Source of the DNA: a virus | Taxonomy: Duplodnaviria; Heunggongvirae; Uroviricota; Caudoviricetes | Virus record (IMG/VR): IMGVR_UViG_2671180432_000009 | Length of the DNA: 8,373 bases | Direction: 5' to 3' (one strand) | Shown: positions 254-7,468 of the stretch, in pieces | How the letters are laid out: every line of letters starts with the position of its first letter | How positions within the stretch are numbered: the first letter of the stretch is position 1 | Program-made: the position numbers and the translations under genes | Notes under the pieces: generated by a model | What the model was told of the DNA's origin: nothing | What the model saw: only the letters and a program-made list of their open reading frames with translations | The model's database searches: none

Positions 254-470
254 NNNNNNNNNNNNNNNNNNNNNNNNNNNNNNNNNNNNNNNNNNNNNNN
301 NNNNNNNNNNNNNNNNNNNNNNNNNNNNNNNNNNNNNNNNNNNNNNNNNNNNNNNNNNNNNNNNNNNNNNNNNNNNNNNNNNNNNNNNNNNNNNNNNNNN
401 NNNNNNNNNNNNNNNNNNNNNNNNNNNNNNNNNNNNNNNNNNNNNNNNNNNNNNNNNNNNNNNNNNNNNN
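254..470. other. Run of 217 N (unresolved or masked sequence)
   Basis: Directly visible; ORFs drawn through it in the six-frame track are artefacts of N translation. Confidence 1.
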
Positions 471-2615: not shown

Positions 2616-2691
2616 TGGTGGCCCTTGCTGGATTTGAACCAGCGACCTGGCGATTATGAGTCGCTCGCTCTCACCACTGAGCTAAAGGGCC
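2616..2691 (-). tRNA. tRNA with CAU anticodon, tRNA-Ile2 (lysidine) type
   Basis: Minus-strand read GGCCCTT-TA-GCTC-AGTGGTGA-GAGC-G-AGCGA-CTCATAA-TCGCC-AGGTC-GCTGG-TTCAAAT-CCAGC-AAGGGCC-A-CCA. Acceptor pairs 7 of 7; one A-C mismatch at the top of the anticodon stem. Closely resembles E. coli ileX and phage ileZ as recalled. Confidence 0.85.
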
Positions 2692-2731: not shown

Positions 2732-3729
2732 TCATCCGTTCTGGCTGACTAAATCCTGTACTTCCCGAACCGTCTGCTCAAAACGTTCAGTCTCCAGCTC
2801 AACGCCAATTGCACGACGCCCGAGCGCCAGTGCCGCTTTCACTGTCGAACCCAACCCCATGAAAAAATCTGCAATCAGGTCACCCGGACGACTGCTAGCG
2901 CTGATTATCTGCTGCAGCATTTCTGCCGGTTTTTCGCACGGATGTTTCCCGGGATAGAACTGCACCGGTTTATGCGTCCACACATCGGTATACGGCACCT
3001 GCACCGTCACGCCAAAATACCGCCGCAGATGTTTATATTCACTCAGCAGCTCCGCATACTGCCGGTTCAGTGAGGTATACGTATCCACCAGCTGGTGGTG
3101 GAGCTTTTCCAGTTCACCACGCCGATGCTTCTCTTCTGCCACCCGGGCAAACAGCGCCTGTAATTTCAGATAATCGCTTTCATTCGGCAACTGCCACTGA
3201 CCGGCACTGAACCAGTGCGACACCATGTTTTTCTTTCCTGTGGCATCTGCAATCTGTTTTGCCGTTATCCCCAGGGCAGCTCGCGCATCACGAAAGTAAN
3301 NNNNNNNNNNNNNNNNNNNNNNNNNNNNNNNNNNNNNNNNNNNNNNNNNNNNNNNNNNNNNNNNNNNNNNNNNNNNNNNNNNNNNNNNNNNNNNNNNNNN
3401 NNNNNNNNNNNNNNNNNNNNNNNNNNNNNNNNNNNNNNNNNNNNNNNNNNNNNNNNNNNNNNNNNNNNNNNNNNNNNNNNNNNNNNNNNNNNNNNNNNNN
3501 NNNNNNNNNNNNGTTTCAGCACCCGCCAGAACTGCGCCAGACACTGGTCCAGCCACTTCAGGTAATCATCGTCGCCCTTCCACTGGTTATCCCAGCCCTC
3601 AGGCTTCACTTTAAAGTACGGCGGGTCCGTGACTATCAGGTCAACAGAATTTTCGGGTAACGACCGGATAAATTCCAGGCAGTCGGCGTTGATTAACTCA
3701 CAACTGGATATTTTTACAGTATTAAGCAT
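2732..3729 (-). CDS. DNA methyltransferase, beta-class N6-adenine (or N4-cytosine) type; middle part lost in the N-run 3300..3512
   Basis: N-terminal segment (3729..3513) has motif IV DPPY (LIVTDPPYF); C-terminal segment (3299..2732) has motif I FxGxG (DFFMGLGST). The order IV then I indicates beta class. The two segments are in different frames if the N-run length is taken literally. Confidence 0.8.
3300..3512. other. Run of 213 N (unresolved or masked sequence) inside the methyltransferase gene
   Basis: Directly visible. Confidence 1.
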
Positions 3730-3821
3730 GGATCATTAAGCCTGTCTCTGATAGGCTCATTCTGCTTTTGCGCAAAGCAGTGGGCCTGAGGTTTGCTTGT
3801 GAACCCAACGCATGAGCAGAT

Positions 3822-3852
3822 GGCTGGTGGGTGCCCCTAACACCCACCAGCC
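3822..3852. promoter_or_regulatory. Perfect 12-bp inverted repeat (GGCTGGTGGGTG / CACCCACCAGCC, 7-nt loop) upstream of the methyltransferase start
   Basis: Seen directly; no U-tract on either strand, so not a classic intrinsic terminator. Candidate operator or RNA structural element about 90 nt upstream of ATG 3729. Confidence 0.5.
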
Positions 3853-3867
3853 GCCCATTTACCACAA

Positions 3868-3893
3868 ATAAAAAAGCCTTCACTGCGGAAGGC
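3868..3893 (-). terminator. Intrinsic terminator overlapping the stop codon of the small HTH gene
   Basis: Minus strand GCCTTC-CGCAGT-GAAGGC followed by TTTTTTATTT; the TGA stop (3882..3880) sits in the loop and stem. Confidence 0.55.
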
Positions 3894-4077
3894 GTCTGTA
3901 ACAACCGAACTGATAGTCTGCCAGACCCGCCATAACCAGCTGGGTCAGTATTAACTGGCAGCGTTCGCGTGAAAGGTAAGTATTCTGCGCTATCTCCCCG
4001 ACTGTCGCCGGTTCGGTAACGCTTAATTCATTAAACACCACTCTGGCGGTTTCTGTCATATCCTGCTGTTTTAGCAT
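3880..4077 (-). CDS. Small DNA-binding protein with a helix-turn-helix-like segment, 65 aa
   Basis: AAGGA Shine-Dalgarno 6-7 nt upstream of ATG 4077; the segment TVGEIAQNTYLSRERCQLILTQLVMAGL resembles an HTH recognition region. Family not recognised. Confidence 0.5.
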   Translation of the reverse strand: MLKQQDMTETARVVFNELSVTEPATVGEIAQNTYLSRERCQLILTQLVMAGLADYQFGCYRRLPQ

Positions 4078-4195
4078 GTCTTTTCCTTTTCCGGTTAACG
4101 TGACACACCAATAACTCTTGTCGAAAAAGCCAGCAAGCTGAAAGACAGGTATTCACCGCCACCAGCGCGTTTACTGTACTGACGCGATTTCAGTC

Positions 4196-4221
4196 ATAAA
4201 AAACCCGCTCGGCGGCGGGTT
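4196..4221 (-). terminator. Intrinsic terminator (tR'-like), copy 2, about 80 nt past the Q stop
   Basis: Minus strand AACCCGC-CGCCGA-GCGGGTT followed by TTTTATG. Confidence 0.6.
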
Positions 4222-4268
4222 GTAGAAACTCTTCTAACGTCAGGCATAAAACGCCCATCGTTATGACG

Positions 4269-4296
4269 AATTTACCACAGATTCCGGAAAAATCAA
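4269..4296 (-). promoter_or_regulatory. Late promoter (pR'-like) immediately downstream of Q, copy 2
   Basis: Minus strand: -35 TTGATT (4296..4291), 16-nt spacer, TGG-TAAATT extended -10 (4274..4269); the predicted transcript to the terminator is about 65 nt, as expected for a short Q-modifiable pR' transcript. Confidence 0.45.
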
Positions 4297-4301
4297 CCTT
4301 G

Positions 4302-5123
4302 TTACCTAGTTACCTTTTTTAACTGCCGCTCAGCCCATGCTTCTTCAATATCAAACCGGGTCACCAGCGCATCATAAAATTTCTTAACTGTTTTTTCCCA
4401 TGACGCGCGTGTTATCTGGTTTGTCACCTCGCATATAGCATTAAATGCCTCCGTTGATGGTAGTCTTTCATAGCCACGACCACCACAACGCTGGCAGTCT
4501 CTGATAACAGGCATACCACGTTTTACCGACTCTTCACGATGAATGGCGACACCACGCCCACGGCAATCCTTACAGGCGGTGGAAACCTCACCCTTTCCGC
4601 CACACTCCGGACAGGCAACTTTTACCACCTCCCTGACTTTTTTCCATTCTTCCCAGTAAGACGGATACACACCTTTCGTACACTTTGCCCATACCGGCGG
4701 CTTACCATCCGGATACTGGACCTTGTTTGTAAAAACTACGCTTTCAATAAATTTTTCCCCATAGCAACAAGGGCACTGCTTTTTACTCGCTGCGCTGCGG
4801 GCATAATCCTCAAAAGCGTACGAAGCCATAATGCGCATCACTACCGGTTTTATTTCTGCCGGAAGTTTTCTCAACGCCGCCACACGATCGCACCGACTGA
4901 GTGCATAATCTGCCAGTAATTCTGTTGCCCGCGCCCTGTCATTCATACTGATGCCCATTTTCCCCAGGAACGCAGAAAACCCCATCTCAGCCCGATTCTG
5001 TGTCATGCCCTGCGCGGCCATCACATCAGTGATACTCAGCGCATCTTTCGACGTTGAGGCCGATGCATCAGTCAGGCCGGGGGATTTTGGGGAGTAGTAT
5101 TTCGGTAAATCTTCCAGTTTCAT
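4302..5123 (-). CDS. Late-gene antiterminator Q-like protein, 273 aa, with four DnaJ-type CxxCxGxG repeats
   Basis: Position is diagnostic: directly downstream of rusA with an ATGA start/stop overlap and directly upstream of the promoter/terminator unit and tRNA genes. Size fits the long Qin-type Q proteins as recalled. Repeats CPCCYGEK, CPECGGKG, CKDCRGRG, CQRCGGRG are visible. Confidence 0.6.
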   Translation of the reverse strand: MKLEDLPKYYSPKSPGLTDASASTSKDALSITDVMAAQGMTQNRAEMGFSAFLGKMGISMNDRARATELLADYALSRCDRVAALRKLPAEIKPVVMRIMASYAFEDYARSAASKKQCPCCYGEKFIESVVFTNKVQYPDGKPPVWAKCTKGVYPSYWEEWKKVREVVKVACPECGGKGEVSTACKDCRGRGVAIHREESVKRGMPVIRDCQRCGGRGYERLPSTEAFNAICEVTNQITRASWEKTVKKFYDALVTRFDIEEAWAERQLKKVTR

Positions 5124-5500
5124 TTTTTGACCTGCCCTTCAAGCATTATGGGATAAATCTTCACCCCCAGACGTCCACCAGATACTGGCTGAGCACGAAC
5201 GATATTGATTTCATCAAACTGCTCATCGTCCATTAGCAACCCCGCATGCGTCAGCGCATCCAGCGGCGCTTTCAGAATATTGTCCAGGTCACGGCGGCGC
5301 TTATCCGGTGGTTCTGCAATAATTTTTATTGCCAACCTTCCGGACAGGCTTAATTTCAGCCGCTGCTGGCGAACAATAAGCGCCACTGCCCGGCGATAAC
5401 GCTCCCCGGCTTTTGATACAAAATATGTGCTGCCACGACGACGCCAGTAAGTGTTCACCGTCGGCGGGTAAGGTAAAACAAATTCTATGCGCTCGGTCAT
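5120..5500 (-). CDS. rusA: Holliday junction resolvase RusA (crossover junction endodeoxyribonuclease)
   Basis: 126 aa; N-terminal PYPPTVNTYWRRRG and catalytic-region RRRDLDNILKAPLDALTHAGLLMDDEQ closely match the RusA family as recalled; typical position upstream of Q. Confidence 0.9.
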   Translation of the reverse strand: MTERIEFVLPYPPTVNTYWRRRGSTYFVSKAGERYRRAVALIVRQQRLKLSLSGRLAIKIIAEPPDKRRRDLDNILKAPLDALTHAGLLMDDEQFDEINIVRAQPVSGGRLGVKIYPIMLEGQVKK

Positions 5501-6559
5501 TTATGCTTTCCACTTCAGAACACCCGAATTTCTCGCGTGCATTAAAAAACGAATCAGCAACAACAGCTGACTGCCGTGTTTCTCTTCAAAATCTTTTACT
5601 CCGGCATGTAGTTCGTTACGGCATTTACGGCATAACGGAATAACAAACAAATCATCAGCCTTTGTTCCCATCCCTCCCAGTCCATGACCAATGATGTGAT
5701 GCGGATCATCTGCCTGATTGCCACACGTCATGCATTTCTGCGTTTTTACCCAGCGCGTGTATACAGGCATCTCTTCCCGTTGTGATTTCTGGCGCTGGAG
5801 ATACTGAGCCGGTGACTCCGGATCAACGGCAATGCTGACCACCGTCTTTTCCTGTGGTGGGTTCTGTTGCTGGTGGACGTGAGGCAGTAACGCAATATTT
5901 TTTGTGCGCTGCTTCAGTATGCTGGTGGCTGTCTGCTCTCCCGGTATGATGTCGCTTTCACTGTACACAGAGCGAATTTTTTCCGCACGCAACCCCAGCG
6001 AACGACGTAATACCGCTTCCGGTAGCGCGTCCGCCACCTGATTGCGGACCGCCCACCAGGATAATTCAGCCAGAGATAATTCACGCTCCTGCGTACCGCT
6101 TATTGCGTGACCGATGACGTCAATCATCCATGCTGACAGGTTTTGATGAGCAAGTTGCTCGAGTGATTCGGATGTCTGGTCACGCAGCTGGTTGTCGCAG
6201 TGCCAGCACAACACCATTGCGCCGGTACCATAACGGTGAATGACGGTTTCGCTGTGATGATAATCGCCGTGTGGCCACTGGCAGGATTTAATATGGCGCA
6301 ACAGCCAGTCAGACAATGCACCAGCACCACCAGCAGCACGAATCACCCGTGCGTTACTGAAAAACGGCAGCAATGTTTTGTCTTCCACCAGCGGCTGGCG
6401 AGCGGCAGGAACGACCCCGGACGGCAGATTACGCATGCTTTTTGGTTCCGGCTCCACCAGTATTCTGCCGTTATGGAATGCTGACATTGATTCACGGCCT
6501 GGCTTAACGATAACCAGACCGAGTTCCGGTACCAGAACAGGTCGAAGTAATACCCGCAC
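5501..6559 (-). CDS. DUF968-like protein (YdfU-like), 352 aa, Cys/His-rich C-terminal motif
   Basis: Size and position match the YdfU family of Qin-like prophages as recalled; C-terminal CMTCGNQADDPHHIIGHG...CRKCRNELH looks like an HNH or zinc-binding motif. GTG start at 6559 after GGAGG; start uncertain. Confidence 0.75.
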   Translation of the reverse strand: MRVLLRPVLVPELGLVIVKPGRESMSAFHNGRILVEPEPKSMRNLPSGVVPAARQPLVEDKTLLPFFSNARVIRAAGGAGALSDWLLRHIKSCQWPHGDYHHSETVIHRYGTGAMVLCWHCDNQLRDQTSESLEQLAHQNLSAWMIDVIGHAISGTQERELSLAELSWWAVRNQVADALPEAVLRRSLGLRAEKIRSVYSESDIIPGEQTATSILKQRTKNIALLPHVHQQQNPPQEKTVVSIAVDPESPAQYLQRQKSQREEMPVYTRWVKTQKCMTCGNQADDPHHIIGHGLGGMGTKADDLFVIPLCRKCRNELHAGVKDFEEKHGSQLLLLIRFLMHARNSGVLKWKA

Positions 6560-7136: not shown

Positions 7137-7292
7137 TTACTCCTCAGGTTCGTAAGCTGTGAAGACAGCGACCTCCGTCTGGCCGGTTCGAATTCGTACC
7201 TCGCAGAGGTCTTTCCTCGTTACCAGTGCCGTCACTATGACGGTTAAACAGATGACGATCAGGGCGATTAACATCGCCTTTTGCTGCTTCAT
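7137..7292 (-). CDS. hok: Hok/Gef-family type I toxin, 51 aa
   Basis: MKQQKAMLIALIVICLTVIVTALVTRKDLCEVRIRTGQTEVAVFTAYEPEE closely matches the Hok/Gef family (HokD/RelF-like as recalled); AGGAG Shine-Dalgarno upstream. Confidence 0.85.
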   Translation of the reverse strand: MKQQKAMLIALIVICLTVIVTALVTRKDLCEVRIRTGQTEVAVFTAYEPEE

Positions 7293-7349
7293 AGCCTGCT
7301 TCTCCTTGCCTTTCGGCACGTAAGAGGCTAACCTAGATTTGCCGTTCAT
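7137..7349 (-). CDS. mok: Mok-like in-frame N-terminally extended reading frame (70 aa) overlapping hok
   Basis: ORF starts 19 codons upstream of hok in the same frame, as in chromosomal mokC/hokC loci as recalled. Confidence 0.55.
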   Translation of the reverse strand: MNGKSRLASYVPKGKEKQAMKQQKAMLIALIVICLTVIVTALVTRKDLCEVRIRTGQTEVAVFTAYEPEE

Positions 7350-7400
7350 AGATTGAGCCTCAGATTAATGTTAAGCGTCTTGCCGGACGCGTAATGTTAA
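7295..7400 (+). ncRNA. Expected position of a Sok-like antisense RNA opposite the mok translation-initiation region (boundaries not resolved)
   Basis: Inference from hok/sok architecture only; a weak plus-strand hairpin GCGTC-TTGCCG-GACGC lies at about 7364..7379. No promoter identified with confidence. Confidence 0.25.
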
Positions 7401-7468
7401 CTGGGGCTTTTCTCTATCTGCCTTTTGGTGTTCATGCCTGAGACAGATAGCCTCAAGCACCCGCTGCA

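Follow-up and report, generated by a model that had tools for sequence, protein, structure and literature searches.

The window analysed here, the whole 8,373-nucleotide stretch of viral DNA, carries an open reading frame of 273 aa on the minus strand at 4302..5123 (window ORF list). The gene closes a nin/rusA region and is immediately followed by a late promoter, a pause element and a terminator (4296-4196); features of a late region, namely a DNA methyltransferase and tRNA genes, lie downstream of this Q cassette. The features are listed below in the direction of transcription, with the parts of the protein following the gene.

5120..5500, minus strand: rusA-like Holliday junction resolvase gene (Pfam RusA, E = 1.5e-16), directly upstream of Q.
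4302..5123, minus strand: Q antiterminator gene, 273 aa, long-arm form, lambda Q family (Pfam, PHROG, PDB sequence and Foldseek matches).
4944..5123, minus strand: N-terminal segment, aa 1-60, equivalent by alignment to the nozzle-forming region of lambda Q, with a presumed similar function here.
4581..4784, minus strand: insertion relative to lambda Q, aa 114-181 (gap between the lambda Q alignment blocks), proposed second zinc ribbon.
4752..4775, minus strand: motif 1, CPCCYGEK, aa 117-124 (C117, C120 and G122 at least 90% conserved).
4590..4613, minus strand: motif 2, CPECGGKG, aa 171-178 (C171, C174 and G176 at least 90% conserved).
4551..4574, minus strand: motif 3, CKDCRGRG, aa 184-191 (aligned to lambda CRDCHGTG, C118/C121).
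4473..4496, minus strand: motif 4, CQRCGGRG, aa 210-217 (aligned to lambda CGRCKGVG, C144/C147).
4308..4457, minus strand: C-terminal helices, aa 223-272, equivalent to the HTH-bearing body helices of lambda Q (alignment to lambda Q 157-207).
4269..4296, minus strand: pR'-like promoter (alignment with lambda, phi80, mEp237, Erwinia Ehr49, mEp460 and quuQ).
4254..4262, minus strand: sigma-dependent pause element AACGATGGG, 6 nt past the -10.
4196..4221, minus strand: tR'-like intrinsic terminator, AACCCGC-CGCCGA-GCGGGTT followed by a T run (terminator scan).
About 3868..3893, minus strand: second terminator-like hairpin, after a 65-aa ORF (terminator scan).

An earlier note on this DNA had described an ORF of 273 aa with four named Cys motifs, and the translation together with a motif scan agreed with that description. 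The overlap of the Q start with the rusA stop as ATGA, also claimed there, was found in the sequence at 5120-5123 (plus-strand tcat), where TGA ends rusA and ATG starts Q; the Q start codon is further backed by an alignment with lambda Q that runs from residue 1 to residue 1. Directly upstream of rusA, at 5501-6559 on the minus strand, a 352-aa DUF968 and HNH-like protein (YdfU-like) is encoded. Its counterpart in the phage record LR597641 is annotated as 'Phage antitermination protein Q', a label that looks like a misannotation because the DUF968/HNH protein has no Q-family match. A hok/sok-type toxin-antitoxin locus is present at 7137-7462 (minus strand), consisting of a 70-aa Hok-family ORF at 7137-7349 (minus strand; Pfam HOK_GEF, E = 3e-23) and an overlapping Rfam sok RNA at 7287-7462 (112 bits), and it mirrors hokD of the K-12 Qin prophage.

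Profile searches with the 273-aa protein revealed a match to Pfam PF03589 (Antiterm, lambda Q family) at 183.7 bits, compared with a cut-off of 26.7 (E = 6.2e-55), and PHROG 127, 'anti-termination protein Q-like' (253 profile positions), covered residues 1-273. Lambda Q provided the only significant sequence matches in the PDB (7UBM, E = 3.5e-40). The phmmer alignment with lambda Q fell into two blocks, residues 1-113 with lambda Q 1-113 (83 bits) and residues 182-273 with lambda Q 116-207, and residues ~114-181 are therefore an insertion. Lambda Q (PDB 4MO1 and 7UBJ-7UBN; PF03589) belongs to the same family and is about 29-30% identical, the N-terminal region, body helices and zinc-ribbon arm being collinear in the two proteins, but it lacks the insertion of 66-68 residues at the body-arm junction (aa 114-181 here). 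Membership of the family and collinearity with lambda Q can be read directly from these alignments. An AlphaFold2 (AF2) model built from 51 homologues (pLDDT 89.3) gave significant Foldseek matches to lambda Q structures only, the best being the full-length, NusA-engaged 7UBN_Q (E = 3.8e-15; TM 0.80, normalised to the target). The predicted C-terminal helices span residues 223-231 and 239-272, and the assignment of an HTH to the body helices of lambda Q is that of PMC9388147. A Pfam scan at E<=0.1 returned no match to the Q21 (PF06530) or Q82 (PF06323) families. The lambda Q, Q21 and Q82 families share no sequence similarity (PMC9388147), and the comparison with Q21 and Q82 that had been proposed is uninformative, as the families are unrelated.

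The four motifs recall the Cys-rich domain of DnaJ (PF00684), in which repeated CxxCxGxG motifs bind zinc through four cysteines, and the protein might accordingly be a DnaJ-like chaperone or zinc-finger protein, with the true Q encoded elsewhere. The Pfam DnaJ_CXXCXGXG profile matches it with E = 2e-6, and one homologue (P0033) carries the name 'chaperone protein DnaJ' in a public record. However, the Pfam match scored 28.4 bits, under the gathering score of 32.7, and NCBIfam DnaJ_bact reached 27.9 bits compared with a cut-off of 377.2. The J, G/F and C-terminal domains of DnaJ proteins are all absent here; in the Pfam scan neither the J domain nor DnaJ_C was matched, PF03589 and the sub-threshold PF00684 being the only families found. 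Foldseek comparisons with DnaJA2 and DnaJ, using the whole protein and the isolated arm, gave E-values of 0.6-4.6 with rmsd of 8.7-10.6 Å (E about 0.8 and rmsd 10.6 Å for the whole-protein match to DnaJA2). A chaperone with Q elsewhere is also at odds with the full-length collinearity with lambda Q, with the pR' cassette directly downstream, and with the other window proteins scanned (Pfam, PHROG), among which no Q-family match and no second Q candidate were seen. A DnaJ/chaperone identity was rejected on the sub-threshold profiles, the missing J domain and the insignificant fold matches of both whole protein and isolated arm, and we regard it as vanishingly improbable. The label of P0033 is a misnaming, and CxxCxGxG motifs cause such 'DnaJ' misannotation occasionally.

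Thus the 'DnaJ-type' description in the earlier note holds for the motifs themselves, which form four repeats, and fails for the profile, which stays below threshold; the fold matches are insignificant. Its central assignment of the protein as a Q antiterminator, not a chaperone, is supported by PF03589, by the matches to lambda Q in sequence and fold, and by the pR'/pause/terminator cassette. The two computational checks it had suggested gave the same picture, with PF03589 above and DnaJ_CXXCXGXG below the Pfam threshold, and with a predicted fold that matches lambda Q significantly and DnaJ not.

The sequences of the promoter, pause element and terminator are directly apparent downstream of Q. 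The -35 hexamer TTGATT (4296-4291, minus strand) begins five bases past the Q stop codon, and a 16-nt spacer, TTTCCGGAATCTGTGG, separates it from the -10 hexamer TAAATT (4274-4269), which is preceded by TGg. A generic sigma70 promoter scan of 3700-4400 called no site, because only 8 of the 12 consensus positions match. The promoter architecture is that of lambda, and the -10, the 6-nt spacing and AACGATGGG are identical to those of lambda pR', where this element leads to the sigma70-dependent pause at which Q loads (PMC9388147; also established knowledge). The spacer TTTCCGGAATCTGTGG presumably holds the Q-binding element (QBE). A nearly identical spacer occurs in mEp237, which encodes a Q with 54% identity, and similar ones are found in Erwinia phage Ehr49 and in phi80, the record of which annotates the -35, QBE and -10 in pR'. 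By contrast, TTTCCGGAATCTGTGG is unlike the spacers of lambda and quuQ, which is what co-variation of Q proteins with their sites would predict, and the QBE here presumably differs from that of lambda. In phi80, the spacer of pR' is related (TTCGCGGAA...CTGG), the terminator follows after a short leader, and the pause element reads AACGCT compared with AACGAT here. The strong terminator hairpin at 4196..4221 lies about 40-65 nt past the predicted transcription start, whereas the leader before the terminator is much longer in lambda. The RNA fold of the pR' leader reached -22.7 kcal/mol (z = -2.6), and Rfam contained no family for this short leader.

Just past pR', between the two terminator-like hairpins, lies the 65-aa ORF (3880-4077, minus strand), which has a strong match to PHROG 331 (unknown function) and weak winged-helix matches (TrmB, E = 0.003, below cut-off). 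In phage mEp460_ev081 (L002, about 4865-4870) the promoter is the same, the pause element reads AATGAT instead of AACGAT, and a tRNA-like sequence comes directly after the terminator in place of the 65-aa ORF.

Next, we considered the cysteine motifs. Motifs 2-4 are exact CxxCxGxG, and motif 1 is CxxCxGxK and holds a third cysteine (CPCC). In 200,000 shuffles of the protein the pattern C..C.G occurred 0.03 times on average and at most twice, compared with four observed occurrences; chance is ruled out for the four motifs, since the shuffles never exceed two. Their conservation is a direct observation: all four are at least 90% conserved in the 51 homologues, down to 25% identity, and C210, C213, G215 and G217 are invariant in the 51 sequences. 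Homologues differ widely in the number of residues that separate motifs 1 and 2. Lambda Q likewise contains CxxCxGxG motifs, two (CRDCHGTG and CGRCKGVG) compared with four here. Its 'arm' (residues 114-152) is a zinc ribbon that touches QBE positions 11-13, sigma region 4 and the beta' zinc-binding domain (Yin et al. 2022, PMC9388147). As the lambda Q arm carries its own CxxCxGxG pair, such motifs are native to the lambda Q family.

The lambda zinc cysteines C118, C121, C144 and C147 align with C184, C187, C210 and C213. In the AF2 model, the order motif 3-strand-helix-strand-motif 4 reproduces the lambda arm, and the model of residues 110-222 superposes on that arm over 40-41 residues at 1.4-2.9 Å with 38-40% identity. 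On this alignment, motifs 3 and 4 are the lambda-type arm. Short natural forms (P0163 and P0258) keep a CxC-type motif 3 together with motif 4, and the 3+4 pair can therefore stand alone as a unit. For the insertion, DSSP of the model assigned strands E114-116, E125-136, E159-170 and E179-181 (pLDDT 79-93), with a loop containing two short helices between strands 125-136 and 159-170, and motifs 1 and 2 sit at the base of this one long predicted beta-hairpin (12+12 residues). Because the hairpin goes out and back, the two motifs are placed side by side in classical zinc-ribbon geometry. AF2 models carry no zinc, and the cysteine pairing is read from the DSSP topology. Judged by the model and by homology with lambda Q, the likeliest role of motifs 1 and 2 (C117, C120, C171 and C174) is to build a second zinc ribbon, arranged in tandem with the 3+4 ribbon.

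The DnaJ Cys-rich domain is nested, with zinc centers formed by motifs 1+4 and 2+3, as against the tandem 1+2 and 3+4 arrangement predicted here, and a Q antiterminator whose motifs fold in the DnaJ manner has to be weighed. The number of motifs, four as in DnaJ, is consistent with such a fold, as are a Foldseek probability of 0.8-0.9 for DnaJA2 7zhs and the position of motif 1, which coincides with that of the first lambda Q motif (117 vs 118). The spacing between motifs 2 and 3 is constant at 13 residues and would fit an alternative 2+3 pairing, as it resembles the single-zinc site of anti-TRAP (RtpA; PDB 2BX9), a small protein in which two neighboring DnaJ-like CxxCxGxG motifs share one zinc. 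Anti-TRAP matches motifs 2-3 weakly (2bx9, E = 0.03; NCBIfam RtpA, E = 2e-4, far below the 65-bit cut-off), and its function and context are unrelated. Several observations nevertheless argue against nesting. Foldseek matches to DnaJ fall short of significance (E 0.6-0.9, rmsd 8.7-10.6 Å), the stretch of 18 residues that follows motif 3 is homologous to the one behind the first lambda motif, and motifs 3 and 4 superpose as a unit on the arm of lambda Q within the range given above. In addition, the out-and-back hairpin brings motifs 1 and 2 together, and the short natural forms retain motifs 3 and 4 as a pair. We consider nested zinc centers unlikely, and the model suggests two tandem ribbons (1+2 and 3+4) in place of the 1+4 and 2+3 topology of DnaJ.

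To examine the prevalence of the four-motif form, we counted motifs in family representatives (50%-identity clusters, at least 170 aa). Four motifs were present in 30 of the 60 representatives, making this the most common architecture, and two motifs in 12, several of which are lambda Q fragments or fusions. The proposal that the zinc module is unusual was therefore not borne out: lambda Q itself has two such motifs, and the four-motif form is the commonest in the family. The third motif is either CxxC, as here and in QuuQ, or CxC, as in phi80. The CxC version (e.g. CRCHGKG) occurs in about half of the long-form Q representatives, including P0123, P0128, P0129 and phi80 Q (L001, 1501-2310).

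The Q protein of phi80 (gp17, JX871397) is a long form of 269 aa that is 41% identical over its full length, and its motifs follow in the same order (CDCCDGGG, CKPCNGKG, CRCHGKG and CDRCGGRG), with CxC in the third where the protein described here has CxxC. The DNA-binding regions of phi80 Q were the subject of an experimental study by Guo & Roberts 2004 (J Bacteriol 186:3599), according to its citation in PMC9388147. QuuQ/YdfT of the K-12 Qin prophage (250 aa, 40% identical) also has four motifs, and its gene shares the neighborhood hokD, rem, YdfU/DUF968 and Q, as well as the same AACGATGGG. It differs in a motif 1-2 hairpin that is 23 residues shorter, in having no rusA between ydfU and Q, and in its spacer and QBE. 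A literature search returned nothing relevant on QuuQ or on a second zinc site in Q proteins.

Clusters 91-98% identical to the protein contain 3739 and 4648 members, named 'antitermination protein', and copies that are 98-100% identical occur in thousands of E. coli records. Of 5426 complete E. coli genomes, 4582 contain a match to the 2.9-kb module, and in 1487 of these the match extends over 80% or more of the module. A protein with 99.3% identity is annotated as Q in phage mEp460_ev081. The protein is an ordinary prophage Q that is already annotated and already known, and a routinely annotated gene from a family that has been solved structurally and mechanistically offers little discovery value. 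The gene may be part of a defective prophage and stay unused, an intact relic without a present late-gene role, like quuQ in Qin. The order hok/sok, rem-like ORF, DUF968/YdfU-like gene and Q mirrors that of the cryptic Qin prophage of K-12, and many of the 4582 E. coli genomes with the module probably contain defective prophages. On the other hand, the ORF is intact, and so are the promoter, the pause element and the terminator, and the 99.3% identical Q of the mEp460_ev081 record has late lysis genes downstream. We regard a relic as rather unlikely, though less so than nested zinc centers, and it concerns the usage of the gene and not the identity of the protein.

The preferred reading is that of a working antiterminator, for which lambda Q provides the template. 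By analogy, the C-terminal HTH body and the motif 3-4 arm (C184, C187, C210 and C213) would bind the QBE between the -35 and -10. RNA polymerase would be held at the sigma70-dependent pause set by AACGATGGG, where Q would capture the paused enzyme and contact sigma region 4 and the beta' zinc-binding domain. In lambda Q, the counterpart of aa 1-60 refolds together with NusA to form a nozzle on the RNA exit channel (PMC9388147). The 60 conserved N-terminal residues would likewise refold with NusA, and the resulting nozzle would block formation of the terminator hairpin, so that polymerase would read through the terminator at 4221-4196 and then later ones. Very probably, the product of the gene is a late-gene antiterminator of the lambda Q family in the common long-arm form, which would act in this way at pR' and the pause and through its ribbons.

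In this protein, motifs 1 and 2 are predicted to bind a second zinc, creating a ribbon with a long, variable beta-hairpin at the body-arm junction. The inserted hairpin is long, aromatic-tipped and variable in length, and most lambda-family Q proteins have it, whereas lambda Q does not. Residues 110-112, 117 and 122-126 of lambda Q touch the beta' zinc-binding domain (PMC9388147). As the insertion falls exactly in this region, the extra ribbon is in a position from which it could add to, or modify, the contacts made with polymerase, NusA or DNA. It is a tentative possibility, one we would not favor, that the inserted ribbon is a functional module, which would touch RNA polymerase, NusA or upstream DNA at an additional point and change either Q loading or the block to swivelling. 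If so, the extra ribbon would alter how most Q proteins of the lambda family load or block swivelling. PDB sequence and Foldseek searches found no long-form Q among solved structures, all solved members being the short-form lambda Q. The commoner long-arm form carries, next to the beta' zinc-binding domain contact, a second predicted ribbon that these solved short-form structures lack.

Several further features were observed downstream of the Q cassette. The DNA methyltransferase gene (2732-3729, minus strand) is split into two ORF pieces by a run of N at 3300-3512, one of four such masked runs in the window (254-470, 1374-1609, 2418-2607 and 3300-3512). A tRNA-Arg(TCT) gene and a tRNA gene with a CAT anticodon lie at 2187-2261 and 2616-2691 (minus strand), with a masked run between them; the latter is called as Met and could be of the Ile2 type. 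An Rfam STnc100 sRNA was identified as a full-length match (133.6 bits) at 1096-1285 on the minus strand.
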